Positions 11,218 through 63,650 of a stretch of 64,000 bases of DNA are shown here, piece by piece. Positions within the stretch are counted from its first letter, which is position 1; the number at the start of each line of letters is the position of its first letter. The stretch covers positions 4,032,001-4,096,000 of the forward strand of contig OY759316.1 of NCBI GenBank assembly GCA_963662275.1. Reading direction: 5' to 3'. The notes under the pieces are model-generated. The model had not been told where the DNA came from, made no database searches, and saw only the letters and a list, made by a program, of their open reading frames with translations. The DNA comes from Candidatus Cloacimonadales bacterium (GTDB lineage: Bacteria; Cloacimonadota; Cloacimonadia; Cloacimonadales; DAONDQ01). The translations under genes and the position numbers were made by a program.

Positions 11218-11686
11218 GTAGAGACGCTCAACTTGAGCGTCTTTTTTATTTGAAAATCTGGTCGAAGATTTCGTAGAGACGCTCAACTTGAGCGTCTTTT
11301 TTATTTGAAAATCTGGTCGAAGATTTCGTAGAGACGTTCAACTTGAGCGTCTTTTTTATTTGAAAATCTGGTCGAAGATTTCGTAGAGACGCTCAACTTG
11401 AGCGTCTTTTTTATTTGAAAATCTGGTCGAAGATTTCGTAGAGACGTTCAACTTGAGCGTCTTTTTTATTTGAAAATCTGGTCGAAGATTTCGTAGAGAC
11501 GTTCAACTTGAGCGTCTTTTTTATTTGAAAATCAGGTCGAAGATTTCGTAGAGACGCTCAACTTGAGCGTCTTTTTTATTTGAAAATCTGGTCGAAGATT
11601 TCGTAGAGACGCTCAACTTGAGCGTCTTTTTTATTTGAAAATCAGGTCGAAGATTTCATAGAGACGTTCAAGTTGAGCGTCTCTAC
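11218..11686. repeat. 8 tandem 55-bp units (GTAG-REP hairpin plus T-tract) and one inverted terminal REP
   Basis: Units start at 11218, 11273, 11328, 11383, 11438, 11493, 11548, 11603; inverted copy 11658-11686. Confidence 0.95.
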
Positions 11687-11710
11687 AGCAGGTTTTTCCT
11701 TTACTGATGA

Positions 11711-11787
11711 TGGTGGGTGATACGGGACTCGAACCTGTGACCCCTACGATGTGAACGTAGTGCTCTAACCAACTGAGCTAATCACCC
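11711..11787 (-). tRNA. tRNA-Val(CAC)
   Basis: Cloverleaf, anticodon loop TT-CAC-AT, GGTTCGAGTCC, encoded CCA. Confidence 0.96.
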
Positions 11788-11802
11788 GATAGGATAAAAA
11801 AA

Positions 11803-11879
<77 letters not shown>

Positions 11880-13139: not shown

Positions 13140-13250
13140 GAGGAAAACAAGAACTGACAATGAAAAGAACATAAGCTAAACAAAACCTAACAAAGTCTAG
13201 ATGATGCCTAGATGATCCCTAGATTATCCTTAGATGATGCCTAGATGATT
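13140..13250. repeat. Dispersed element with CTAGATGATGC 11-mer tandem repeats
   Basis: About 5 units at 13197-13249; inverted homologue at ~42574-42660. Confidence 0.7.
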
Positions 13251-22693: not shown

Positions 22694-25600
22694 GTGTTAC
22701 AAGATGAAATGAGAATTGTAGAATATGATCCAATTTATGCCAAGTGTATTGCAGAGATGTGGAATAACAGCGGTTCGGGCTGGAACGGAGATAATACTCA
22801 TTATACAGAAGCTGGCGTAAGAGATAAGGAAGCAGTTTCGTCCTACCTGCATTTATATTTAGCTTTCATTGGAGATAAAGTCGTTGGTTATTGTAAGCTC
22901 TCCAAATACTTCTATGATGAGAACACTCTTTACATCGATTTACTGAATGTTGATCCGCAATATCATAACATGAAGATTGGGAAGGCATTGGTCAAAAAAT
23001 CCGTAGAGCGAACAATTGAATTAGGATATCCCAGGTTGGACTTGTTTACCTGGGCAGGTAATACAAAAGCAGTCCCGCTCTATAAGAAATGCGGTTTCTT
23101 CTGGGAAAAGATGGAAGCTAACTCCACACACTTGATGAATTTCATTCCTGCTGTATTCAACACTGCTTTGATAAAAGACTATTTTACCAGTATTGACTGG
23201 TACGATGACTCAACAAGAACAATAGACATAGTACCTGATGGAAGAACAGAGAATAACTTTGATTTCCTGACCTATTGTTGGGAAAAAGACGGTAGGAAAC
23301 TAGTCGTAGAATTTGAAAAGACAGGTAGGGGAATTCACAGTATAGATACAGATGAATTTCAGATTGTGACAGAAATAGAAAATGGGAAACTGGTGTTTGG
23401 CAGGAAATACAAAGTAAAATATGACATCTTAAATAAAACAGGGAAAGCACAAAAGGTTGAAATCAAAGGAATAGATGATAAGAATATCAAGTTTGATTTG
23501 AACTTCAGTGGAGAAGTACTTGGAAACAAAACAATCGAAGGAGAGTTTTATTTAGGCTCTATTGATTTTGAACAAAGCATGTGGAATACGCATCCTGCTG
23601 TTTGCGCTGAGATTACTTTCAACGGTAAATCTGCTATTTTCAAAACAGGTATCAATCCTCAGTTTCCTTTAAGGATGTTTGCCGGTAAGATGGAAAACAG
23701 CCTGTATACAGGTCGGAAAAAAGAGCTGTTTGTAAATGTTGAAAATAACTTTAATGAAGATGGTGAATTTGAGATAATCTTCCCAAAACAGAAGGATATT
23801 CACTTCGGTACAAGCACTATCAAAATACCCCTGGAAGCACATCAGAGAAGCAATTTCCCAATTAAAGTGACTGTCAGAAATTCTGTTCTCTACAATCAAC
23901 GGCTTGAAGTCAGAGTTCATTTAAAAAATGGTGAATCATTCAGCTATAGCCAGCCATACACGATGATCATATACATTCCAGAAGGTCGTACCTATGGTAA
24001 AAATAACGAGAAATATTCAATAATTAACGGAAAGAATGTTCTAATTCTAAATGAAGATGATGACATCAATACTCTCTTCTACAAAGTACTTAATACCGAG
24101 TTACATTGTTATATAGGCTATCCGAAAATCGGGAAACCTTACTCTTCGGAGTTCCTGCATAAGCAGCCTGATAAAATTGAAATCGTAGAAAAACACTATT
24201 CGGTAACTCTTAAAATGTATTACAGCTCTGATTCTTTCCCAGGCTTAAAGTTCATCTCCCATAATAAAGTATGTAACTCAGGAATGCTGGAACAATGGTT
24301 TGAGATTCTCTCATATCCTGATGGATGTGATGAGATATATCTGAATCGTTCCGTTATTGTCGATAATGAAAACATGACCATTCCTTATTCAGGAATGATC
24401 ATCAAAACAGATACCATAGCACATAATGATAATGCACATCTGAATTGGGATGGAGACAAAATAAATGAGAATTGGCTATATTTCACCAATAAAAACGATA
24501 GTATGTCTATTGTGTGGCATAAAAAGGATAGATTGGTTTGTTGTGAATGGTATTATGCTATCGAATATACGCTAAAAAAAGGAAAAGACTCTCGAACTCA
24601 TTCTCTGTTTATTGGATATAATGTCTTTTCTTCAGTGAAAGAGCTTCGTGAGTTTGCTCTTAGAAAGAAGGTTGAACCTGTAATTCCCAAATCATTTCAT
24701 GATCTGATCATTAACCGGGGGAATCCGTTTGTTGATGGTAAATGCAAAGTTGCTTATACTGATTATCGACAAACTCCCATGGATTGCACTGTCAATATTA
24801 ACTCTGAGAATGGAATATGCCCAAGTCTTAATGGAGTTGCAGAAAAAGATAAGGAAAAGCATGAGTTACGCTTTGAATTTAAAGCTAAAAGCAAATCGCT
24901 AATCGATATCGTAAAGGCAGAAGCTAATTATCCTACAAGGAGCTTTCACATAGAAAAGACTTTGTTTCAGAAGCAAAAGGGAGAAGTTCATCAATTCACT
25001 GAAAAAATTGAAGATCATACAGTTTATACTGTTGATAATGGCTTAATACGGTTCAAGGTTTCTCCTGGATATGCTCCAGCAGTGTATTCATTGGTTTATC
25101 AAGATCATGAATGGTTGGATAACAGCTTTCCGACCAGTTGTTCCAAATCATGGTGGAATCCCTGGTATGGAGGAGTTGAAAACAACATTGAAGCTATTAA
25201 ACGATCTTCCTGGATTGAGGAGAAACATATTATTGCTTTTGTGGAGAAAGCAGATAATTATGGTCAGATCTGGAAAGGAATAGAAATAAAGACTGCTATT
25301 GAAAACTATGATAGTCATAAGAACCTGGTTGTAAGCCAGTATTTCCTGGTACTCACTGGTCTTCCTGTCATGGCAGTATTCAGCAGTTATTTCCAGGAAA
25401 GTGGATTCTGCAGAGAACTCACGGGCTTTTCAAGAATCTTTGCAAAAGGGGACGATGAGATCACAAACTCCACGTTTGAACTAACCAGGGATGGAGAAGT
25501 TTTTGCTACTAATTGCGGTATAGAGGAAATCGACTTTAACGTTCTTGGCAAACTCCTGGCATGTGCAGGTAAGAACAGAAGAGAAAAACTGTATTTCTAT

Positions 25601-25783
25601 AATACCCAATCTCCTTTTAATGCTCACGCTGGCTCTGATTCTTCCACTATATCATTGCTCTTTTATCATCATTTATCGCTCAAAAATAATGAATGCAAAG
25701 CTACACCTATTAAATTCATAATCCTTTCAGAACTGGACATTCCGGAAAAGACACTGATTGATTTGGAGAGTATCAGGTTTTAG
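22694..25783 (+). CDS. Large protein with N-terminal GNAT acetyltransferase domain
   Basis: LNVDPQYHNMKIGKALV, TWAGNTKAVPLYKKCGF; ~850-aa beta-rich remainder. Confidence 0.8.
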   Translation: MLQDEMRIVEYDPIYAKCIAEMWNNSGSGWNGDNTHYTEAGVRDKEAVSSYLHLYLAFIGDKVVGYCKLSKYFYDENTLYIDLLNVDPQYHNMKIGKALVKKSVERTIELGYPRLDLFTWAGNTKAVPLYKKCGFFWEKMEANSTHLMNFIPAVFNTALIKDYFTSIDWYDDSTRTIDIVPDGRTENNFDFLTYCWEKDGRKLVVEFEKTGRGIHSIDTDEFQIVTEIENGKLVFGRKYKVKYDILNKTGKAQKVEIKGIDDKNIKFDLNFSGEVLGNKTIEGEFYLGSIDFEQSMWNTHPAVCAEITFNGKSAIFKTGINPQFPLRMFAGKMENSLYTGRKKELFVNVENNFNEDGEFEIIFPKQKDIHFGTSTIKIPLEAHQRSNFPIKVTVRNSVLYNQRLEVRVHLKNGESFSYSQPYTMIIYIPEGRTYGKNNEKYSIINGKNVLILNEDDDINTLFYKVLNTELHCYIGYPKIGKPYSSEFLHKQPDKIEIVEKHYSVTLKMYYSSDSFPGLKFISHNKVCNSGMLEQWFEILSYPDGCDEIYLNRSVIVDNENMTIPYSGMIIKTDTIAHNDNAHLNWDGDKINENWLYFTNKNDSMSIVWHKKDRLVCCEWYYAIEYTLKKGKDSRTHSLFIGYNVFSSVKELREFALRKKVEPVIPKSFHDLIINRGNPFVDGKCKVAYTDYRQTPMDCTVNINSENGICPSLNGVAEKDKEKHELRFEFKAKSKSLIDIVKAEANYPTRSFHIEKTLFQKQKGEVHQFTEKIEDHTVYTVDNGLIRFKVSPGYAPAVYSLVYQDHEWLDNSFPTSCSKSWWNPWYGGVENNIEAIKRSSWIEEKHIIAFVEKADNYGQIWKGIEIKTAIENYDSHKNLVVSQYFLVLTGLPVMAVFSSYFQESGFCRELTGFSRIFAKGDDEITNSTFELTRDGEVFATNCGIEEIDFNVLGKLLACAGKNRREKLYFYNTQSPFNAHAGSDSSTISLLFYHHLSLKNNECKATPIKFIILSELDIPEKTLIDLESIRF

Positions 25784-25864
25784 GTGTTAGGTGTTAGGTG
25801 TTAGGTGCTAGGTGTTAGGTGCTAGGTGCTAGGTGTTAGGTGCTAGGTGCTAGGTGTTAGGTGC
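25781..25864 (+). repeat. 12 tandem TAGGTG(T/C) heptamers
   Basis: Counted directly; first TAG is the GNAT stop codon. Confidence 0.97.
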
Positions 25865-25895
25865 TAGTGTTAATTACAAACAATAGGAGGGTAAG

Positions 25896-26258
25896 ATGAT
25901 TATCAAATCATACAAAGACTTAATTGTATGGCAAAAAGCCATGGATTTAGCCGTTGAAATTTATCGATTGAGCAAGAGTTTTCCAAAAGATGAATTGTAT
26001 TGTCTTACAAATCAAATTCGCAGAGCAGCCGTATCAATACCATCTAACATAGCTGAAGGCAAAGGTAGGAACTCAAAAGCTGAATATCTGCATTTCATTT
26101 CAATTGCACAAGGTTCGTTAGCAGAAACCGAAACACAAGTACTATTAGCTGTTCGACTTAATTATATTACTGAAACACAAGCAAATATGACGATTCAACT
26201 ACAGAATGAAATTAGCAAGATGTTGGCTACATTAAGGATAAAACTAGCTGAAGGTTAA
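25896..26258 (+). CDS. Four helix bundle protein (23S rRNA IVP family, Avd-like fold)
   Basis: SYKDL.VWQKAMDL, FPK.E.Y.LT.QIRRAAVSIPSNIAEG.GR, GSL.E.ETQ; GGAGG RBS. Confidence 0.95.
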   Translation: MIIKSYKDLIVWQKAMDLAVEIYRLSKSFPKDELYCLTNQIRRAAVSIPSNIAEGKGRNSKAEYLHFISIAQGSLAETETQVLLAVRLNYITETQANMTIQLQNEISKMLATLRIKLAEG

Positions 26259-26265
26259 AGCGATT

Positions 26266-26284
26266 CCTAGCACCTAATACCTAT
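26266..26284 (-). repeat. Inverted TAGGTGY-family heptamers containing the pyk stop
   Basis: cctagcacctaatacctat. Confidence 0.85.
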
Positions 26285-27716
26285 CCTCCTGCTGATGCTC
26301 AAGATCAATAATCTCCACCCTTGGGTTAATATGCGGATTTTCTGGAGAAGGACCTTCAGTTAATACGACTTTACTGCCACTCAAATCATAACGTTTCAGC
26401 AAGTCTTGTGCAAAGGCATTCCAGTTTGAAGGTGTTTCATTATCATGAATGGGGATGACACCATAGGTAAAAACCAATTGCTGGCAAGTACGCTTATCTT
26501 TGCATACAGCAGCTATCCAAACGTGTAGCTTAAATCGCGAAACCATACGAGAAGTATATCCAGTCTGTGTATGCACAATAACTGCTGCAGGCTCCATAAA
26601 ATCAACCGTCTGTTTAACATTATGCGAGACTACATCTGTAATAGAAAGATTGTGGATATTTCCGCATTCTGTTAAATCGGCGAGTGGTTCAAACTCAGGA
26701 CGATGCGGTTCTGTGGCAGCAGCAATGCGTGATAAAACGTTGACAGCTTCCACTGGAAACTTGCCCATTGCTGATTCTTCAGAAAGCATGATACAATCAG
26801 TTCCATCCAGCACGGCATTTGCAACGTCCGTTGACTCTGCACGTGTTGGTCTGAAGTTCTCAACCATCGATTCCAGCATTTGTGTTGCTGTTATTACGGG
26901 TATTCCCAAGCGATTTGCCATGTGAGTCAATTCTTTCTGAACGATGGCTATCCTTTCAATCTGTGTTTCAACTCCCAAATCTCCACGGGCTATCATGATT
27001 CCGTCAGCAGATTTCATAATATCCTTGATATTACTGAGTGCACCTGCCCTTTCAATTTTCGCAATAATAAAAGGCTTATATCCCATCTGGTGAGCTGCTT
27101 TGCGAACAGCATCAACATCAGCGCTGCTATTCACAAAAGACTGACTAATCGCATCCACACCATGCTTCAAGGCAAATGCCATGCATTCCTTATCTCTATC
27201 CGTAAAAGCGCACATTCCCAAATCAATACCAGGTAAATTCAACCCTTTGTGGGAACGCAATTCACCACCTGCTAACACACGGCAATGAACATCATTGCCA
27301 TGAATATGAGTCACTTGCACTTGGATGATACCATCATTCAAAAATATGATATCCCCAGGTTTAACTACTTTCGGCAACTGTGGCAGACTCACCGATACCC
27401 GTTCTTTAGTCCCTTCCACAACTTCTGTTGTTAATATCAGCAAATCATCTCTAACCTGTTCGATAGGCTCTTCAGCAAGATGTCCAATACGAATCTTTGG
27501 ACCGGGAAGGTCAGCCATAATGGCTAATCTTTTCCCTGCTTTTCTGGCTGCTTCTCTTAAATTAAGAATCGTCTTCTCATGCCAGTCAAATGCACCATGA
27601 GAAAAGTTCAATCGGGCTATGTTCATACCCGCATTAATCATATTCAGCATAGTTTCAGGTGCTTCTGAAGCTGGTCCAATTGTACAGACTATCCTTGTTT
27701 TGTTGGGCGAAAGCAT
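26274..27716 (-). CDS. pyk: Pyruvate kinase
   Basis: KTRIVCTIGPAS, ARLNFSHG, IIAKIE, MIARGDLG, TATQMLESM, TRAE.TDVANA. Confidence 0.97.
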   Translation of the reverse strand: MLSPNKTRIVCTIGPASEAPETMLNMINAGMNIARLNFSHGAFDWHEKTILNLREAARKAGKRLAIMADLPGPKIRIGHLAEEPIEQVRDDLLILTTEVVEGTKERVSVSLPQLPKVVKPGDIIFLNDGIIQVQVTHIHGNDVHCRVLAGGELRSHKGLNLPGIDLGMCAFTDRDKECMAFALKHGVDAISQSFVNSSADVDAVRKAAHQMGYKPFIIAKIERAGALSNIKDIMKSADGIMIARGDLGVETQIERIAIVQKELTHMANRLGIPVITATQMLESMVENFRPTRAESTDVANAVLDGTDCIMLSEESAMGKFPVEAVNVLSRIAAATEPHRPEFEPLADLTECGNIHNLSITDVVSHNVKQTVDFMEPAAVIVHTQTGYTSRMVSRFKLHVWIAAVCKDKRTCQQLVFTYGVIPIHDNETPSNWNAFAQDLLKRYDLSGSKVVLTEGPSPENPHINPRVEIIDLEHQQEDRY

Positions 27717-27733
27717 AGGCACTCCTTTGCAAA

Positions 27734-27907
27734 AGGTATTAGTTGTTAGGTATTAGGTACTAGGTGCAGAACAAACATTTCATACGTGATTTTTTAAAAT
27801 TCTGAAACTATTTCCCTCTCTTTGGATAAAGAGAGGGATTAAGGGTGAGTTTGATTCTCTGCTCTGATTCTGACATCTATCACCTAGCACCTAAGACCTA
27901 AAACCTT
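27734..27907. repeat. Forward (27734-27767) and reverse (27874-27907) heptamer arrays around a CCCTCTCTTTGGATAAAGAGAGGG palindrome
   Basis: AGGTATT/AGGTACT/AGGTGC units and CACCTAG/CACCTAA units; palindrome also at ~3272 and ~3532. Confidence 0.8.
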
Positions 27908-27921
27908 CTTTAATTCTCAAT

Positions 27922-28236
27922 TTATGATATTCTCACTGCCGTACCGGAAACCGCTACCATCAGCATACCTTCGCGTACAACTTCATAATCCAAGTCAACA
28001 CCTACGATCGCATTTGCACCCATTTGCAATGCTCTTTGAGCCATTTCGTTAATTGCCAAATCTCTGCCTTGCTGGAGTTTTTCTTCGTACGCTGCACTGC
28101 GTCCACCTACTATATCCGTAACCGAGGCAAACATATCTCTTATGATATTTGCACCCATGATCGCTTCTCCGGTCACAATACCAAAATATTGTTCAATCGA
28201 ATGTCCTTCTACGTTGGGTGTTGTTGTGATAAGCAT
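27922..28236 (-). CDS. YbjQ (UPF0145) family protein
   Basis: ITTT..VEG..I..Y.GIV.GE, GGRS..YE, GANAIVG, GTAV. Confidence 0.93.
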
Positions 28237-28311
28237 GATTTCCTCCTTATCCTTTTTTTGGATAGAGTTAATGAGTTAGAAAATTAGTCAATGGAAAAGA
28301 AGTTTGCAGAG

Positions 28312-28343
28312 GGTGCTATGTACTAGGTATTGGGTGCTAGTAC
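28312..28343 (+). repeat. Degenerate TAGGTGY heptamer array upstream of the ybjQ-family gene
   Basis: ggtgcta tgtacta ggtattg ggtgcta. Confidence 0.75.
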
Positions 28344-28452
28344 ATAAAAGTGGTTTTACGACAGTAAACCCTTTCAAATATGGCTAGAAATTAACAAGAC
28401 TTGCGCACTTGACCTATCATTATTGTCTGGTAATCAAACTCTCTTCTCTTCT

Positions 28453-30675
28453 TTATTTCACCAGTACCATCTTCTTATAGGCACTCTTCCCGTTTGCAAT
28501 TATCCTGGCAAAATACACACCCGAAGAAACGGCTATGTCTTTTTCGTCTGTTCCATTCCAAGAAATTGAGTGATTACCCGTATTGAGATTGTCTTTAAAT
28601 AAGCTCTTCACGAATTGCCCTTTGATGTTATAGATATCCAGATTTACCTTTCCGGGTGATGATAGATCAAAGCTGATCGTCGTAGAGGGATTGAATGGAT
28701 TAGGGTAGTTTGATAAGGTTAATGATTTATTTGGTATCACTACTTCATCATTCACAGGTACGATAATATCATCATGATCGTAAAAAGCATCCCAGTAAAA
28801 TTCAGTAAGACCGGAACGAGTTGTTCCTATCCATTTATTATCCTGGCTATCCAAGGTAAGGCAGTTTATGGAATTAACCGGCAGTATCGAATTCTCCCAA
28901 TTAATCAACTCCCAATGCTGCTCATCAAATCGGAGCAGTCCACCTGATGTCATCCACCAATTAGAATACAAACTCAGCCATTTTACATCCTGGGAATCAA
29001 TTGCAATACTCACTATCTGCTGGGGAACTGGAGAATTTGGCAGGATATAAGATGACCAGATACCATCATTGAACTTAGCTAGGCTTACTTCAAAATTTGA
29101 ACTAGAAGTATCAAAGGTACCTATCCAAAGTACACCTTCGTGATCTATGTTAATACTGCTAATAGCATTGAAGGGCAATCCCGAATTTGATGTATTATAG
29201 ATTGTCCAGGCTTCATTATGATAATTAGCAAGACCTTCTCCAGTACCGATCCAAATGTTATCGTCAGTACCGATGGCAATACATGTAACTCCATCTGAAG
29301 GTAAGGGAGAGTTTGATGAATTCAAGTATATCCAATTATTACCATCAAACCTGGCTAATCCATTATGATAGCCAAGATACCAATTTACCAATCCAATCCA
29401 TTTGATTCCCTGGGAATCTATTGAAATACTGGAAATACAATTCATAGGTGCACCTGGATTCGAAGGATTATATACAGTCCAGTTCGAACCATCAAAACAG
29501 GCAAGACCATCGAATGTACCAATCCATTTATGATGCTCTGAATCTTCCGTAATGCAATTGATCCTATTACTGGGTAAACCTGAATTATTCAGATTATAAA
29601 CAGACCAGTCGACTCCGTTGTAACAGGCTAAGCCCCCAAACGATGTACCAATCCATTTATTATTGGTAGAATCAATGGTAATACAAGTTACATCCTCGTA
29701 TGGAACACCCGAATTCGAAGTATTAAATGCAGTCCAGTTTTCACCATCGTATTTGACTATTCCAGAACTACCTATCCATTTATTACCCTGGGGATCGATC
29801 GAAATTGAAGGAATGTAGTTACTGGGTAATCCGGAATTTGATGTATCGTATCTCGTCCAGTTGTTGCCGTCAAATTTGATCAATCCATGAGCTTCCGTGC
29901 CCATCCACTTATTTCCCTGGGAATCAACAACAATTGAGGATGGAATCCACCCAATATAGCCAAGATCTTCAAATGGAGAATCATATCCTGTGCAATTACT
30001 ACCATCAAATTTGACCATTCCATGTGATAAACCCATCCAGATATTATCTTGAGAATCAATTGCCATATTCCAGATATAAGTTAAATCATAAGAATACTGG
30101 GGTATTATATTTGTCCATGCTAGATTATCGTATTTTATCAACCCGTATCCTGTTGTACCAAACCATTTATTATTTTGGGAATCAATGACAATTGAAATAA
30201 GAGAGCTGCCGAGAAGATCATATTCCTGTTGATCATAATGATACCAGTTTTCACCATCAAATTTGGCTACTCCTCCATTATATGCACACCATAGATTTTG
30301 CTGTAAATCAACAGCTAAACAGTGTATTTGATTATTCAATATAGAATTTGAAGTATTATAAACTACCCAATTCTCGTTATCGAAACTCACAAGACCTGCC
30401 TCATATGTTCCTATCCATTTGACACCATCGGAACCAATGGCGAGAGAAGTAATATGATTATAGATTAATCCCGAATTAGATTTATTGAAAAATGTCGTTG
30501 CTCCTGTTAAACGATCGATCTTGACCAGACCTCCGGTTGTTCCCACCCAGAGATAGTTTCCTTCGATTGCAGTACATGTTACATCTTTGCCATAAGTAAA
30601 ATTAACACCTTGGCTTTGAGCAAAAAGCAGTCCTATAAGAGAGACCAAGATAAATGTGAATAAGCTCTTAATCAT
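28453..30675 (-). CDS. Secreted beta-propeller repeat protein with FlgD/T9SS-type C-terminal domain
   Basis: Repeated I.ID..GNKWIGT..GL..FDG..W..YN.SNS.LP; NYPNPFNPSTTISF...GVYF. Confidence 0.88.
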   Translation of the reverse strand: MIKSLFTFILVSLIGLLFAQSQGVNFTYGKDVTCTAIEGNYLWVGTTGGLVKIDRLTGATTFFNKSNSGLIYNHITSLAIGSDGVKWIGTYEAGLVSFDNENWVVYNTSNSILNNQIHCLAVDLQQNLWCAYNGGVAKFDGENWYHYDQQEYDLLGSSLISIVIDSQNNKWFGTTGYGLIKYDNLAWTNIIPQYSYDLTYIWNMAIDSQDNIWMGLSHGMVKFDGSNCTGYDSPFEDLGYIGWIPSSIVVDSQGNKWMGTEAHGLIKFDGNNWTRYDTSNSGLPSNYIPSISIDPQGNKWIGSSGIVKYDGENWTAFNTSNSGVPYEDVTCITIDSTNNKWIGTSFGGLACYNGVDWSVYNLNNSGLPSNRINCITEDSEHHKWIGTFDGLACFDGSNWTVYNPSNPGAPMNCISSISIDSQGIKWIGLVNWYLGYHNGLARFDGNNWIYLNSSNSPLPSDGVTCIAIGTDDNIWIGTGEGLANYHNEAWTIYNTSNSGLPFNAISSINIDHEGVLWIGTFDTSSSNFEVSLAKFNDGIWSSYILPNSPVPQQIVSIAIDSQDVKWLSLYSNWWMTSGGLLRFDEQHWELINWENSILPVNSINCLTLDSQDNKWIGTTRSGLTEFYWDAFYDHDDIIVPVNDEVVIPNKSLTLSNYPNPFNPSTTISFDLSSPGKVNLDIYNIKGQFVKSLFKDNLNTGNHSISWNGTDEKDIAVSSGVYFARIIANGKSAYKKMVLVK

Positions 30676-37070: not shown

Positions 37071-37640
37071 CTAGCGCAGCGTCTTTTTTCAAAAGGTGGA
37101 TAGGTCGTATCTTGTACGATGCAAGCTGCTGTAATTCCATGATCTGACGCTTAAAGAAACACCGGGCTGGTTTGGTATTTTGCTTCATTTAAAAAATGAA
37201 CTATCGACCTCACAAGATGAGGCGTTGCGTTTACTTTCTGTTTTTCAAAGTGTAGCGCATTTTATCAAAAGTTAGCTGGCGCAACGCCTTTTTTCAAAAG
37301 GTGGATAGGTCGTATCTTGTACGATGCAAGCTGCTGTATTTCCATGATCTGACGCTTAAAGAAACACCGGGCTGGTTTGGTATTTTGCTTCATTTAAAAA
37401 ATGAACTATCGACCTCACAAGATGAGGCGTTGCGTTTACTTTCTGTTTTTCAAAGTGTAGCGCATTTTATCAAAAGTTAGCTGGCGCAACGCCTTTTTTC
37501 AAAAGGTGGATAGGTCGTATCTTGTACGATGCAAGCTGCTGTATTTCCATGATCTGACGCATAAAGAAACACCGGGCTGGTTTGGTGTCTTGCATCATTT
37601 AAAAAAATGAACTATCCACCTCACAAGATGAGGCGTTGCT
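37071..37640. repeat. ~2.8 tandem 205-bp units, each with an inverted REP pair (GCAACGCCT...AGGTGGATAG)
   Basis: AAAAGGTGGA at 37091, 37296, 37501. Confidence 0.93.
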
Positions 37641-38261
37641 CTAATCTCTGACCCAAGTCCATTGCCATTTTTCAGGTTCATCGACAAGATTGGCTTTTAC
37701 TGGGTTCATAACTATATAATTTATTATGTTCATCAACTCTTTCTCATTTCTGACGCAGTAGTCAAAATATTCCCTTTGCCAGAGTGAACCCTGCCGATTC
37801 AATTGTCTGTTAATTTCGACAGCAGTATTACCCTTGATCTTCTTTATTACATAAGACAATAGATGCGGTTTTCCTGGCTCTCTTTCCAGAATTTTCATCA
37901 AAAGATGAATGTGATTCGGCATGATAGTAAAACATATCATTTCATATAATACATCATTGAACTCGAGAAATGTATCTTTAATACGGGAAGCAGTTTCAGG
38001 ATGTGTCAGATTAATGGGATTTGAGGTATGTTTTGCCAGCATTTGATCATAATAATCGAAAACCTTCTTTTGAACGATATTCTGATAATATGCACCTTGC
38101 GTAATCCTGGAATTAATCTGTCGTTTATATTCATTAAGATCTCCGACAAAACTGACAGGTAATGAATCCCTGATTCGAAATGTGATGAACAAAATGCCGT
38201 TTTCAGGTTGGTAATGCGGCATCCTTCGCCAGTAGAATTGATTGATGTATGACTTATCCAT
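37641..38261 (-). mobile_element. REP-associated tyrosine transposase (RAYT, Y1 HUH)
   Basis: RRMPH, FITFR, MPNHIH (HUH), WQREYFD, YI.MNPVKA; REPs on both sides. Confidence 0.9.
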
Positions 38262-42456: not shown

Positions 42457-42911
42457 GCATCCTCCACAATATTAACTCTATAAATAAAAAATAATCATTA
42501 GTTATTTTGGAGTCAAGGAATATTTATTAAGTAATTTAGAAGCACTAAACAGATGTATAAAATGAGCTGGGGTTCATCTAGGCATTATCTAGGCATTATC
42601 TAGGGATCATCTAGACTTTTTTAGATTTTCCTTAGGTTTTCATTAGTTCTTGTTTTTTTTCAAATTTCTTCATCTTCCTTAAGGCTTTACATGAAAGATG
42701 AGGATTTGGAGTTCAAATGCCCTAAACAAATTATCATTGAATACCAGATTAAAAGGGCATTCGGACTTCAAAATCGACCTTTCATCTTCAGTAGCGAAAA
42801 CTCGTTTCAGAGAACTTCGAACCTGCTGCCACGTTTTCCCTTGACAGCTCTGCCCTGCTAAAGATTTTAGCAATTCGTACATAATTTTGATTTATAGGAC
42901 AGGAGAGATAA

Positions 42912-53513: not shown

Positions 53514-53946
53514 CAGTAATTCACATTACGTAACTCATGTATAACACTTCATCAGATACATGAGTACAAATACATACATATCAGATCACTATGATTATAC
53601 AAAGTTCAATCCAAGTTCATATCAGTTTGATTCCTGTTTCATTCCTGTCTCGAGAGATTGGAATGGAACAAGATTAGCTTTGGTTTAGGTTTGCTTTTAG
53701 TCCGGTAGTATCCTTTGAGAACGAAGTCTATGCAAAGGAAGGGATTAGAAATCGGAACGCTGTTTTCAAACGGCTATGCATTTTCAAATGGCAAGATCAT
53801 AGCTTACTAAATTAAGCGTTCCATCCGCATACTTTCAGACTCCGAGGTTGCAAACCATCGGATAGAACAAGATACAATCTTATGTTACAATACCCCGAAG
53901 TAATAAACATCGGGAATTAACAAGATACAATCTTATGATACAACAA

Positions 53947-58508: not shown

Positions 58509-58799
58509 AACACACTCCTCTTTTGAGTTTATCAGTGTTTGGTTCAAGATTATTACTTGGTTGATTTAAGCAATTAATTTTTTATTCCCTTTGTCAAGTT
58601 TTCAATATTGTGAAGCAAGACGCCGTTCTTGCTGAACCTCTTTGTGGAGTAGGATGCCGATCCTACTGAACACGAAACCCAAGAGTTTTTGAATTCCTCT
58701 TTTTCAGTAATCACTTTTTCAGTAGGATCGGCATCCTACTCCACGCATATAACAACATTGCACCTTGACAAGATAATGCATTCATGGCATAAGAAGAAC

Positions 58800-59897
58800 A
58801 TGAAAAAATTGATAACCAATAATCGTGTAGCTATCCTCGACTTAGGTACAAATACATTGAAGCTTCTCATTGCTGAACAAAACGATGGACAGTGGGAATT
58901 TATCCTTGATACAGCCATATCATGCCGTTTGGGTGAAGGTTTGAAGCAAAGCAAAAGACTTTCACCGAATGCTAAACAACGTGCCTTGGATGCTTTGGAT
59001 AAGGCAATTGCACTTTGTGACCGGAGTAAAGTTAGTCAAATATATCCTATCGCTACTGAAGCATTCAGGATAGCAGATAACGGAGAAGATTTTCGTCTGA
59101 AAATAAAAAAAGAACTGAATCTGGATTTTAAGATAATCTCAGGAGACGAAGAAGCTGCTCTTGCCTTGGAAATGCTAAAATATGAATTCCCCCTCAGTAT
59201 GAAGGAAACCCTTATCATTGATATTGGGGGCGGAAGCACAGAGATAAGTGCGAAGTACGAAGTGCGAAGTACGAACGGGAAGACGAAGGAAGAAAGTTCG
59301 AAGTACGAAGTGCGAAGTACGAACGGGATAATATCCCCCCTTGAGAAGGGGGGTAGGGGGGTCAACCATATTTCTTCGGACTTCGAACTTCAAAATATAG
59401 AATCCCCCTCCACCAACTTCGAACTTCGAACTTCGGACTTCGAACTTCGAGTGAGTTTGCCGATGGGATGTGTTACCCTCACAGAAGAGTTTTTACCCTC
59501 TGATCCGCCTACAGAAGATGAAGTGCTTGCATTACAAGACCATATCAAGTCTATTATCAGTCAATTCCCCAAACCAGAGAATCCTTTATCATGTATAGGT
59601 TTGGCAGGAACATTAGTGACTCTTGGCTCTTTGTTCCTGGGTGAATTCAATGCAGAAAACATTCATGGATTGACGATGACTTATGATCAAATTGATATCA
59701 TCTCTTTAAATTTAAATCATATGACCAACGAAGAAAGAAAGACAATGCCCGGCATGATCCTCAATCGGGAAGATGTCCTGCCTGCCGGTGCAATTATGCT
59801 GCTGGAGATTATGACTCATTTCCATATTGATACTGTTACTATCAGTACACATGGGATTCGGCACGGGTATTTGTACAGCCTGGAACGCTGTCTTTAG
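58800..59897 (+). CDS. ppx: Ppx/GppA-family exopolyphosphatase (short form) with a 68-codon repeat insertion
   Basis: ILDLGTNT.KL, RLGEG, ATEAFR.A.N, ISG.EEA, DIGGGSTE, SLPMG, GLAGT, R.DVL.AG, GIR.G. Confidence 0.9.
   Translation: MKKLITNNRVAILDLGTNTLKLLIAEQNDGQWEFILDTAISCRLGEGLKQSKRLSPNAKQRALDALDKAIALCDRSKVSQIYPIATEAFRIADNGEDFRLKIKKELNLDFKIISGDEEAALALEMLKYEFPLSMKETLIIDIGGGSTEISAKYEVRSTNGKTKEESSKYEVRSTNGIISPLEKGGRGVNHISSDFELQNIESPSTNFELRTSDFELRVSLPMGCVTLTEEFLPSDPPTEDEVLALQDHIKSIISQFPKPENPLSCIGLAGTLVTLGSLFLGEFNAENIHGLTMTYDQIDIISLNLNHMTNEERKTMPGMILNREDVLPAGAIMLLEIMTHFHIDTVTISTHGIRHGYLYSLERCL
59246..59450. repeat. Intragenic heptamer inverted repeat (CGAAGTR)n...(ACTTCGR)n enclosing a REP palindrome
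   Basis: Seen directly; reading frame preserved. Confidence 0.92.
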
Positions 59898-61106: not shown

Positions 61107-61340
61107 AACTTACCTTGCTTGTCCATTTATTTTAGAATATCCAACATCAGTATCATTACTTTTCTTACAGTATTTTCTCTCTGTTATTTATGTAAAGTGG
61201 GTAACGCTATACCTATATTACATAGTATTCATGATGTGATTTCCTGTCAAGATTGCTTTTTTGGGAATGCTTACATGCAGATTCATCGTCAACGATGTGG
61301 GAACAAGTCGCAGACGCTGTGTTCCAGTCTGCCCTTCTTA

Positions 61341-61371
61341 ACTAGCACCTACAACCTAACACCTAGCACCT
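61341..61371 (-). repeat. Reverse TAGGTGY heptamer array upstream of the LVIVD gene
   Basis: actagcacctacaacctaacacctagcacct. Confidence 0.85.
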
Positions 61372-61451
61372 TCTGCAAATCTTTCCTTGACACCGCATTA
61401 ATCCTTAATCTATTTTGCAAATATACTTAACTACTCAAATATATTGGAGAA

Positions 61452-63617
61452 ATGATGAAATCTTGGATTATGCTTATTTTACTTTATCTTTGTTTCCTAC
61501 CTATTTTTGCTGTGATTCATAAGATTGGAGAATATGATACGCCAGGTTTGGCAAGATCAGTTTCCATAATAGGAACAATTGCATATATTGCAGATGGCGA
61601 TTCAGGATTACAAATAGTCAATGTATCAAATCCTCAGAATCCGTATCTATTGGGTTCATATGATACTCCTGGCTTCGCGATTTCAATTTCAGTAGTTGAT
61701 GGGATTGCTTATATAGCAGATTACACTTGTGGTTTGCAGATCATCGATGTTTCTGATCCTCAGAGTCCGTATCTACTTAGTTCATATAATACTCCAGATC
61801 GAACACGCTTCGTTTCGGTTGTGAATAATATTGCCTATATAGCAGATTGGGAATCTGGTCTGCTGATCATCGATGTATCCGATCCTGAGAGTCCGTATCT
61901 ACTTAGTTCTTATGATACACCGGATATAGCATATTCAGTGAATATAGTCGGAAGCACTGCGTATGTAGCTGATGGAGTTACCGGTTTGCAGATTATTGAT
62001 GTTTCCGATCCTCAGAATCCTTTCCTACTTGGATCATACGATACTCCTGGTTACGCAGTTGACGTCAATGTTGTGGACTCTATTGCCTACATAGCGGACG
62101 GCGCTGATGGAGAATCTGGGCTGCAAATTATTGATGTGACAAATCCTCAAAATCCACAACCCCTTGGTTCATATACAACTCCCGGTTATACATTCTCTGT
62201 TGCTGTTCAGGATAACATTGTCTATGTTAGTGGTATGAATTTTCACATTGCTTATCCTTATTTTGAAATCCTTGATGTATCAGATATACAAAATCCACAA
62301 TTACTTGGGTCTTATGATACGCCTGAATCTGTATTTTCGGTCAGCATTTTAAGCAATTTTGCTTATTTAGCAGATGGCTCATCCGGTTTACAGATTATTG
62401 ATGTTTCCAATATCCAAAACCTGTCATTTCTTGGCTCTATATGTACTCCTGGTAACGCAGAAGCTGTCACTGTCATAGGTAATTTTTCTTATACAGTAAA
62501 AGGCAGTTCCGGTATGCAAATCATCGATGTAAATAATCCTCAGGATCCACAAATACGAGGTTCTTATGACACACCTGGTTACGCTTACTCTATCAATGTT
62601 GTGAATAATATTGCTTATATTGGAGATGGCAATTCAGGTTTACAAATAATTGGTGTTTCAAATCCCGATAATCCACAACCTTTCGGATCATATGATACTC
62701 CTGGAAATGCCAAATCCATTGCCGTAGTGGGTAATATTGCTTATATTGCGGATGAGTATTCTGGAATACAGATTATTGATATTATTGATCCTCAAAATCC
62801 ACAACTCCTTTGTTCCTATACTACCATTGAGCCTGCTGAATTTATCTTTGTTGTGAATAACAAAGCTTACGTGATAGAAAGCGAATACATGCTTCAGATA
62901 ATTGATGTTTCCGATTCATTAAATCCTTTTTCACTTGGGACTTATGAAACTCAAGGATGGCTTAAATCTGTTAGCGTTGTTGGTGATATTGCTTTTATGG
63001 CTGGTGGTTATTCTGGCATATTAATTATCGATGTATCCACTCCTGCGACTCCTACATTAGCAGGAATAATTTCAAGTAATCACCAAACAAGCGTAGTAAC
63101 TGATGTTTATATCAAAAACAACTTCCTTTTTGATGTTGATAATAACTGGAATGAGATAGGAATTTATGATATTAGTAATCCCTCTGAACCAATTCTTATT
63201 AGTAATTATTCATGGAATCTAAGGACGGTCGATCTTGTCATGGAAAATGGGAAACTCTATATAGTTAATGTCAGTAATGGTTTGAGTATCTTAGATAATA
63301 ATGCTATCGTTCCAGTTGATGACCCAATAGTGATTCCTAAGAATGAACTCTCCCTCTCCAACTATCCCAATCCATTCAACCCTTCTACAACAATCAGCTT
63401 CGATCTTCCCAAAGCAAGTTTAGTGAACTTGGATATCTATAACATCCGTGGTCAAAAAGTGAAGAACCTTATGAATGAGCATTTTACGCAGGGGAATCAT
63501 ACTGTATCTTGGAATGGAACAAATGATGATGGACATGCTGTTGCTTCCGGTATATATTTTGCCAGGATGAGCAATGGTGGTAAGGTTGTCAGCAGGAAGC
63601 TGGTGCTGGTGAAGTAG
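61452..63617 (+). CDS. Secreted LVIVD-repeat protein with FlgD/T9SS-type C-terminal domain
   Basis: About 14 repeats AYIAD...GLQIIDVS.PQNP.LLGSYDTPG; NYPNPFNPSTTISF; TTGACA at 61387. Confidence 0.9.
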   Translation: MMKSWIMLILLYLCFLPIFAVIHKIGEYDTPGLARSVSIIGTIAYIADGDSGLQIVNVSNPQNPYLLGSYDTPGFAISISVVDGIAYIADYTCGLQIIDVSDPQSPYLLSSYNTPDRTRFVSVVNNIAYIADWESGLLIIDVSDPESPYLLSSYDTPDIAYSVNIVGSTAYVADGVTGLQIIDVSDPQNPFLLGSYDTPGYAVDVNVVDSIAYIADGADGESGLQIIDVTNPQNPQPLGSYTTPGYTFSVAVQDNIVYVSGMNFHIAYPYFEILDVSDIQNPQLLGSYDTPESVFSVSILSNFAYLADGSSGLQIIDVSNIQNLSFLGSICTPGNAEAVTVIGNFSYTVKGSSGMQIIDVNNPQDPQIRGSYDTPGYAYSINVVNNIAYIGDGNSGLQIIGVSNPDNPQPFGSYDTPGNAKSIAVVGNIAYIADEYSGIQIIDIIDPQNPQLLCSYTTIEPAEFIFVVNNKAYVIESEYMLQIIDVSDSLNPFSLGTYETQGWLKSVSVVGDIAFMAGGYSGILIIDVSTPATPTLAGIISSNHQTSVVTDVYIKNNFLFDVDNNWNEIGIYDISNPSEPILISNYSWNLRTVDLVMENGKLYIVNVSNGLSILDNNAIVPVDDPIVIPKNELSLSNYPNPFNPSTTISFDLPKASLVNLDIYNIRGQKVKNLMNEHFTQGNHTVSWNGTNDDGHAVASGIYFARMSNGGKVVSRKLVLVK

Positions 63618-63619
63618 GA

Positions 63620-63650
63620 AGGTACTAGGTGCTAGGTGTTAGGTGCTAGT
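63620..63650 (+). repeat. Forward TAGGTGY heptamer array after the LVIVD stop
   Basis: aggtactaggtgctaggtgttaggtgctagt. Confidence 0.88.

Follow-up and report, generated by a model that had tools for sequence, protein, structure and literature searches.

The stretch analysed here, which we call the window, comprises 64,000 nucleotides (positions 4,032,001 to 4,096,000 of contig OY759316.1, assembly GCA_963662275.1) from a Candidatus Cloacimonadales bacterium whose genome is a single contig of 4.38 Mb with 39% G+C. It contains a small gene for a four-helix-bundle protein of the family PF05635, placed between two arrays of tandem heptamers of the type TAGGTGY, and the nature of this cassette is our subject (Table 1). 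The cassette lies between a gene with a GNAT domain and the pyruvate kinase gene pyk, not inside a 23S rRNA gene, and it fits this convergent junction so tightly that both host genes terminate in the TAG of a heptamer, as an earlier note on this DNA had claimed. Upstream of the open reading frame (ORF) there are 12 back-to-back copies on the + strand (25781-25864), the last of which ends 31 nucleotides before the ATG; the program TRF counts 14.1 copies at 25775-25872. An exact match to TAGGTGY is found at 23 sites of the window, where 8.3 +/- 2.8 would be expected and none of 100 shuffles has as many. If up to two mismatches are allowed, the two-unit pattern TAGGTRYTAGGTRY matches at 32 sites instead of the expected 2.5 (at most 7 in shuffles). 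This pattern places the first array at 25774-25864 (+) and the fifth at 28317-28337 (+), with the three between them as in the table, and it finds two more arrays on the two sides of a gene for a protein of 722 amino acids. The strict alternation of the five arrays (+, -, +, -, +) described in the earlier note was reproduced. The shuffles thus set the arrays apart from chance, and the further claim that they are polarised and linked with the four-helix gene is borne out by the genome-wide and cross-genome counts given below. No Rfam family matched positions 25000-29000 at E values up to 1, and a scan for promoters and terminators stayed within what shuffles give and had no match at the arrays.

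The four-helix protein scored 148.4 bits against PF05635 (cut-off 33.8) and 137.6 bits against TIGR02436 (cut-off 24), and no other Pfam domain was found in it. Its structure was predicted with a pLDDT of 96.3, with helices at residues 10-26, 31-56, 61-87 and 93-119. Foldseek matched the model to 2gsc (Xanthomonas XCC0516) at TM scores of 0.91-0.97 and also to 2rld (Bacteroides BT_0352), two entries with five chains each that match the protein in sequence as well. The next matches were Avd of the diversity-generating retroelements (DGRs; 4dwl, TM 0.80/0.89) and DGR ribonucleoprotein entries with TM scores of about 0.8 and 10-12% identity, so that the fold shared with Avd, which the earlier note had asserted, is seen in the predicted model. 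The protein scored 38.4 bits with the NCBIfam model for Avd (NF033474), under the cut-off of 80.

The link between heptamers and this gene family extends to the whole genome, where PF05635 is represented by four intact genes and a broken copy. All of them adjoin heptamer arrays, in agreement with the association that the earlier note expected. The unit TAGGTGY is shared by two loci, ACAGGGT and AAGATTT are found at a single locus each, and the broken copy has GAAGTTC/GAAGTAC. Inverted pairs occur at four of the five loci, and the upstream arm of the ACAGGGT locus is weak. At the AAGATTT locus the nearest arrays on both sides have the same sense, with inverted copies about 150 nucleotides further out. 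We then compared the flanks of PF05635 genes in two collections. The order sample consisted of 31 genomes, 19 of which carried the family, often in clusters, and 66 of the 67 loci had usable flanks; these 66 come from 20 genomes. The diverse sample had 80 loci (Chromatiales, Clostridia, Kiritimatiellia, Bacteroidota, Acidobacteriota, Planctomycetota, candidate phyla and others), 77 of them with both flanks. With a threshold at the 99th percentile of cross-locus flank pairs (375 for the order set, 454 for the diverse set), complementarity between the two flanks exceeded the threshold at 45 of 66 loci (68%) in the order and at 50 of 77 (65%) in the diverse set; the cassette of the window scored 31 against a threshold of 29.26. 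Among all genes of the present genome 84 of 2970 passed (2.8%), and among those of 90-160 amino acids 16 of 368, four-helix genes counted in. The other genes that passed were similar to the tyrosine transposases associated with repetitive extragenic palindromes (RAYT and REP, respectively), with REP-like flanks, or were DUF559-like.

The arms of the PF05635 loci are tandem arrays, in the diverse set almost always with period 7 and sometimes with 8 or 9, and the purine-rich arm stands on the 5' side in a ratio of 41:4 in the order set and 41:9, with 3 ties, in the diverse set. What the earlier note had called the opposite polarity of the four-helix gene is thus a family-wide signature across phyla. 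When the units were phased, A stood at position 7 with a frequency of 0.91 and never at position 6, and position 1 held either G (0.73) or A (0.26); the logo carried 3.68 bits of information, whereas 20 shuffled sets averaged 2.95 bits and did not exceed 3.10. The units vary by locus, yet they have a common A-R core. Their distance rises as protein identity falls, from 1.0 at identities of at least 80% to 2.3 at 70-80% and 3.2-3.6 below 50%. Unit and protein therefore diverge jointly, which indicates that gene and arms descend together, with both arms changing in step; because relatives share labels, we take the trend as common descent of the cassette and not as recognition. The neighbours of the cassettes were co-oriented with the gene in 65 of 78 cases upstream and 56 of 73 downstream, not different from the genome baseline of 78%. 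In the draft genome of the same genus (G001), several four-helix genes lie a few hundred bases from contig ends (contigs C28, C40, C27 and C107), as would be expected if repeat arms break short-read assemblies.

These counts also bear on the simplest explanation, in which slippage makes repeats of the short tandemly repeated repetitive (STRR) type that are unrelated to the four-helix gene, and the two occur together by chance or through a shared taste for long spacers. Tandem repeats of heptamers are already known as a class from several phyla (accessible text of PMC4679880 and PMC4692102), and most arrays in this genome are solo. Arm complementarity at 68% and 65% of the PF05635 loci, versus 1% of cross-locus pairs (by construction) and 2.8% of all genes, makes slippage extremely unlikely to us, and so do the handedness of 41:4 and 41:9 and the joint divergence of unit and protein.

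Instead, we suggest that the region is a free-standing hairpin cassette of the type of the intervening sequences (IVS) in 23S rRNA, with gene-less relatives, and that pyk and ybjQ are bystanders; we would give this reading a probability of about 0.6. The meaningful unit is the PF05635 gene, which occupies the loop between two inverted arrays, not pyk or ybjQ. We read the window element as a hairpin cassette outside rRNA because the closest experimentally studied case is the IVS in helix 45 of the 23S rRNA of Coxiella burnetii (Warrier et al. 2016). According to the accessible text of that study, RNase III cleaves its terminal stem of 28 bp. On the 5' side the cleavage falls where the first heptamer GACAGAT begins; two to three of these heptamers stand in tandem directly before the S23p ORF, and their number differs between strains (PMC4990558). 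By analogy, the cassette would be transcribed from the promoter of the GNAT gene, its arms would pair in this host-driven transcript to form a long stem whose loop contains the ORF, and the stem might be cut by RNase III, as in the ORF-bearing 23S rRNA IVS. A gene for RNase III is present in the genome. The cassette would then be an insertable, self-contained hairpin unit from which gene-less pairs and solo arrays could derive, and the Avd-like protein probably acts on the nucleic acid of its own element. The earlier note had proposed gene-sized cassettes or loop-out RNA units; the loop-out layout stands, in the form known from ORF-bearing 23S rRNA IVS, while the cassettes around pyk and ybjQ do not.

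Table 1. Features of the window that are discussed in the text (positions are those of the window).
Feature	Position	Strand	Basis
Host gene, protein of 1029 amino acids with N-terminal GNAT domain; its stop is the TAG of the first heptamer (25781-25783)	22694..25783	+	ORF, Pfam
5' arm of the cassette, purine-rich, (TAGGTGY) x12 with degenerate units at the ends	25774..25867	+	pattern, TRF
PF05635 / TIGR02436 four-helix-bundle gene, 120 amino acids, AGGAGG before the start, PF05635 E 9.5e-44	25896..26258	+	ORF, Pfam
3' arm of the cassette, 3 units, TAGGTRY on the - strand; its first TAG is the pyk stop	26263..26283	-	pattern
Host gene pyk, pyruvate kinase; stop 26276-26274 is the TAG of the - strand heptamer 26270-26276	26274..27722	-	ORF, Pfam
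Boundary motif TTTGCAAAA, in pyk sense TTTTGCAAA, directly before the pyk ribosome-binding site	27726..27734	+	sequence
Gene-less hairpin, arm of 5 TAGGTRY-like units; the 3' arm in a ybjQ-pyk transcript	27733..27767	+	pattern
Inner 11-bp hairpin TCCCTCTCTTT / AAAGAGAGGGA, within the loop of the gene-less hairpin	27813..27838	.	sequence, folding
Gene-less hairpin, other arm, 4 units, 22 nucleotides past the ybjQ stop, gene sense	27873..27900	-	pattern
Host gene ybjQ (PF01906)	27922..28236	-	ORF, Pfam
Boundary motif TTTGCAGAG, then 3 degenerate units as a solo array for which no partner arm was detected	28303..28337	+	pattern
Inverted pair without a gene, from another heptamer family; GAAGTRC units 59246-59323, complement 59374-59451	59246..59451	.	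TRF, pair listing
TAGGTRY array about 80 nucleotides upstream of the 722-amino-acid gene (61452), then TTCTGCAAA and TTGACA box	61338..61372	-	pattern
TAGGTRY array 2 nucleotides past the stop of the 722-amino-acid gene, gene sense	63619..63646	+	pattern

The gene-less hairpin, the solo array and the cassette all belong to one genome-wide population of several hundred heptamer arrays in few unit families. Tandem runs of period 7 number 559 in the genome, against 26-90 for each of the periods 4-6, 8-10 and 12 and 277 for period 11, and fall into the families TAGGTGY, GAAGTTC/GAAGTGC/GAAGTAC, ACAGCGT/ACAGGGT, AAGATTT/AAGATTG and AAGAATT and a class made of A and T only. Merging gave 471 arrays, usually of 3-5 units, of which 68 lie within crude ORF calls and the remainder in 275 of the 2971 intergenic regions. 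Arrays were found in 46 of 333 convergent, 38 of 332 divergent and 132 of 2305 tandem spacers, an excess that carries no conclusion because tandem spacers are much shorter. The density here is 0.82 arrays per 10 kb, compared to 0.11 at 80 unrelated pyk loci from metagenomes (5 arrays in 460 kb). Three-unit matches to TAGGTRY numbered 329 in this genome, 10 in the draft of the same genus, one in each of two genomes and none in the other 27, and the control gave none throughout.

For the inverted pairs we scanned the 357 arrays that are not A/T-rich for partners of the same unit within 1.5 kb. Inverted partners were found for 40 arrays and direct partners for 77, and the control with reversed units gave 2. 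The 40 arrays make up 23 pairs, with spacers of 58-480 nucleotides that hold nothing recognisable or a four-helix gene. In 21 of the 23, as read from the listing, the purine-rich array comes first and its complement second, a layout that is identical from either strand. The spacer between ybjQ and pyk, folded as a - strand transcript, reached -60.6 kcal/mol against -37.5 +/- 4.4 for shuffles (z -5.2), with the two arrays paired around the inner hairpin. The outer stem of the cassette was present in both the minimum free energy and the centroid structure.

Several results weigh against the hairpin cassette. Inverted partners within 1.5 kb are missing for 317 of the 357 arrays, and derivation from a cassette is therefore an assumption for solo arrays. 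The RNA of the whole cassette (526 nucleotides) did not fold better than shuffles (z -0.24). The arms can be very unequal, with 12 and 3 units here and 9 and 47 at another locus, and 21 of 66 and 27 of 77 PF05635 loci stayed under the threshold of the flank test. In C. burnetii, S23p is likely not made in vivo, according to the accessible text of that study (PMC4990558). Finally, arm mismatches in the gene-sense transcript of 106 loci comprised 166 of the G.U type, 210 of the A.C type and 471 others. Since there is no excess of G.U, selection for pairing of the sense RNA is not visible, and the complementarity may have originated at the DNA level.

In such an origin, the arms would be made or kept in DNA, for example by templated addition of a purine-rich repeat to both 3' ends where a break or an insertion has occurred, or by hairpin-mediated transposition, and complementarity and handedness would be by-products of insertion and not a matter of RNA function. 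The purine-first order is, by geometry, the outcome to be expected when the same repeat extends two 3' ends, and the lack of a G.U excess and the very unequal arm lengths point the same way. Arrays also begin exactly at or in stop codons. Of the 47 genes that a sense array abuts, 28 end in TAG, compared with 751 of 2971 in the whole genome. The partner of Avd is a reverse transcriptase, and the genome has 18 matches to RVT_1. By coordinate comparison, however, these are far from the four-helix genes, none of which has a reverse transcriptase, transposase or integrase beside it, and the many different units with periods of 7, 8 and 9 speak against a single template. We consider the DNA-level origin unlikely. 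As an observation apart, the RVT_1 matches are mostly in groups of identical score with open frames of 444, 459 or 465 amino acids, which, judged from sequence, points to a retroelement present in multiple copies, for example a group II intron.

The arrays have a polarity relative to the genes that they follow. For this count, arrays were oriented by purine content alone; a first count of 75:10 was set aside because the signs of the families had been picked from the same data. Within 150 nucleotides after a stop codon, the array was purine-rich in the gene sense in 79 cases and in the antisense in 24, and within 22 nucleotides in 60 and 4 cases. The orientation of arrays relative to genes, for which the earlier note had proposed a genome-wide check, is thus not random. 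It is independent of the replication strand (TAGGTGY 34 leading and 40 lagging, with the other families alike). In a relative, G003, 14 of 20 sampled 9-mer arrays on the + strand had a left neighbour on the + strand, with 7:3 within 40 nucleotides, which is in the same direction and weak.

This polarity could belong to a repeat-binding network, in which an Avd-like, ring-forming oligomer of the four-helix protein binds NNAGNNN heptads in single-stranded RNA or DNA with one unit per subunit. Each paralogue would read its own heptamer family, the many mRNAs with solo arrays at their 3' ends would make up a post-transcriptional regulon, and autoregulation would come from the arms on either side of the gene. 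We find such a network possible, though improbable. It would agree with the A-R core kept at a 7-nucleotide period, with arrays of typically 3-5 units beside the five chains of 2gsc and 2rld, and with the place of Avd in an RNA-protein complex (titles of the PDB entries). The five PF05635 loci are flanked by four dispersed families that are among the most abundant, the solo arrays abut stops purine-sense on both replichores alike, and in G003 a 9-mer that flanks one four-helix gene has 237 matches genome-wide against none for the control. Protein-binding roles have been proposed for the TAACTGA heptamers (MacGregor 2015, accessible text of PMC4679880). On the other hand, the match between families and loci is equally expected if cassettes just share common repeats; we dropped such "cognate family" matches as evidence, because chance sharing would look alike. 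In G003 an 8-mer from another locus is confined to that locus, and the polarity at stop codons follows from the geometry of a purine-first hairpin beside a stop.

Arrays of all families have a boundary motif, GCAGA, in common. Of 259 purine-oriented arrays, 80 have it within 20 nucleotides on the 3' side and 67 within 25 nucleotides on the 5' side; about 5 would be expected per 16-position stretch. Judging by the words that are enriched, the consensus is likely TGCAGAAGG-(array)-GCAGAGAAGAG, which reads YTYTGCAAA on the other strand. The ACC-YTYTGCAAA that the earlier note saw before pyk and ybjQ is present there as ATACC-TTTTGCAAA and GCACC-CTCTGCAAA, and the gene at 61452 has it upstream too, as CACC-TTCTGCAAA. 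Past some arrays on the pyrimidine side (window 61373-61451; genome 2,321,9xx) the motif is followed by a TCTTTCCTTGACA-like stretch with a -35-type TTGACA. In the corresponding flank GTCAAG was counted 13 times against 1.7 expected, a hint that some elements carry a promoter facing outwards.

The arrangement around pyk and ybjQ had led to the idea that the arrays are recombination or pairing sites that turn these genes into mobile cassettes, like those of integrons. At pyk, ybjQ and the 722-amino-acid gene a reverse array does stand upstream and a forward one downstream, and 11 genes have TAGGTRY arrays in both flanking spacers against 3.2 expected (maximum 10 in 2000 permutations). The layout of these 11 genes does not fit the idea. 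Six are of the opposite, hairpin type (two four-helix genes and two tiny doubtful ORFs among them), one is mixed, and only four are of the pyk type, namely pyk, ybjQ, the gene at 61452 and an ORF of 51 amino acids, three of them in the window. Such arrays are absent from the pyk loci of 11 relatives, pyk and ybjQ are housekeeping-type genes, and there is no recombinase among the neighbours of the locus, where the search was made, with no genome-wide integrase search. The only other genome of the genus, a draft of 240 contigs, is not syntenic here; its pyk is 66% identical and has different neighbours, and its homologue of the GNAT gene (32% identity) is on another contig. In metagenome contigs the best match to pyk was 63% identical. 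Moreover, the strict alternation in the window is fully accounted for by two purine-first pairs (25774/26263 and 27733/27873) and the solo array at 28317. Mobile pyk and ybjQ cassettes are thus very unlikely, and the two genes would be bystanders between two hairpin elements and a solo array.

A bolder proposal, which we hold to be quite doubtful, would make each dispersed heptamer family the footprint of its own four-helix paralogue, as in REP/RAYT. An Avd-like ring would read NNAGNNN and, with host enzymes (such as RNase III or a reverse transcriptase), seed or maintain the arrays at the 3' ends of genes. If this were true, the arrays would supply stop codons and shape mRNA ends, and STRR-type repeats and 23S rRNA IVS would be one system.

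Arrays and cassettes also matter for annotation, as the arrays give stop codons to host genes, make spurious ORFs and break short-read assemblies. Several heptamer families have no stop codon in any frame, so that arrays can create or lengthen spurious ORFs. An open frame of 403 amino acids (window 58689-59897) runs across the GAAGTRC heptamer hairpin at 59246-59451.

Other repeats were noticed beside the heptamers. Period-11 arrays, which we treat as a class apart, amount to 197 after merging, with families such as AAACAGGAATG and AATGCTACCGT (in the window at 13195-13235, 42573-42646 and 53623-53651). They are mostly solo, with an inverted partner in only five cases; the clearly readable listed pairs are pyrimidine-first, and the period-11 arrays that abut a stop codon are purine-sense in a ratio of 5:0. 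The heptamer runs of A and T only (AAAAATT type, 60 runs) are found within 40 nucleotides after stops 28 times in the gene sense and once in the antisense. They may be a separate thing, for example phased A-tracts or terminator tails. At 11218-11879 a 55-nucleotide unit is repeated 8.5 times, each with a terminator-like GC hairpin and a T run, followed by a 92-nucleotide repeat (x1.8) resembling duplicated tRNA genes. Among the genes between inverted repeats are the small DUF559-like genes (motif ELDGSQH / EIDGDSH; contig C1 at about 3,580,988-3,587,702, at 1,436,999 and at 3,032,567). Each lies between inverted hairpin repeats of the GGGAGGGG type, and some form a tandem cluster of 134-amino-acid paralogues. 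A hairpin similar to these repeats is held in the loop of the ybjQ-pyk element. In the window, a RAYT-like Y1 transposase gene (207 amino acids, motif TIMPNHIHLL) adjoins a 205-nucleotide tandem repeat of 2.8 copies (37074-37639 and 37641-38261), and several RAYT-like paralogues lie elsewhere in the genome between REP-like inverted repeats.

To our knowledge, PF05635 is a very large family with no assigned function, linked to rRNA intervening sequences only, and decades of cataloguing bacterial heptamer repeats (STRR, TAACTGA, GGGAATC) have, as far as we know, given neither a partner nor a mechanism. The present results join these two puzzles in one complete genome. The STRR heptamer repeats of cyanobacteria were reportedly described by Mazel and colleagues in 1990. 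Dispersed short repeats at gene ends that also occur inverted around one small transposase gene are the hallmark of the REP/RAYT systems (REPtrons). Our arrays are likewise a dispersed gene-end repeat family with inverted copies around a small gene. However, the flanked gene here encodes a 120-amino-acid helical bundle without a nuclease or transposase motif, of PF05635 and not a Y1 (HUH) transposase, and the repeats are tandem heptamers instead of single palindromes. With the DGR protein Avd the cassette has the fold in common, as far as the predicted model goes, and differs in an Avd profile score under the cut-off and in having no reverse transcriptase near it, its neighbours being the GNAT gene and pyk.

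The STRR, TAACTGA and GGGAATC repeats are, in what the sources at hand describe, tandem 7-mers in intergenic regions with many copies, like those here. In Xanthomonas, 70 to 75 sites of the GGGAATC repeats are convergent inverted pairs, one on each strand (accessible text of PMC4692102). In Beggiatoaceae, stop codons overlap forward TAACTGA repeats (MacGregor 2015, accessible text of PMC4679880); those repeats precede start codons, whereas the arrays here abut stop codons. Term searches of the accessible text of these two papers gave no mention of the four-helix/S23p family or of an IVS, and in the literature outside subscription journals we found no paper that gives a general rule of a four-helix gene with heptamer arms.

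The 23S rRNA IVS, which lie in helix 25 or 45, come closest. An ORF-bearing one was also reported from Leptospira (Ralph and McClelland 1993, as cited in the accessible text of PMC4990558). As described there, they resemble the present cassette in the S23p/PF05635 ORF in the loop of a terminal inverted-repeat stem and in the variable tandem heptamers upstream, and the C. burnetii unit GACAGAT fits the A-R core of the cassette units. In contrast, the cassette here lies between protein-coding genes, the arms have 3 to 47 units, and the same arrays stand without the four-helix gene at hundreds of sites. The heptamer repeat class, TAACTGA, GGGAATC with its inverted pairs and the C. burnetii IVS heptamers are already in print, in the text accessible to us. 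The complete genome adds the census of arrays, their independence of the replication strand, the 60:4 polarity with the enrichment of TAG, the GCAGA motif and the finding that every four-helix gene is at arrays of a major family. Our reading is an IVS-type cassette outside rRNA that is tied to dispersed heptamer arrays, with a mechanism that we infer from its rRNA counterparts.

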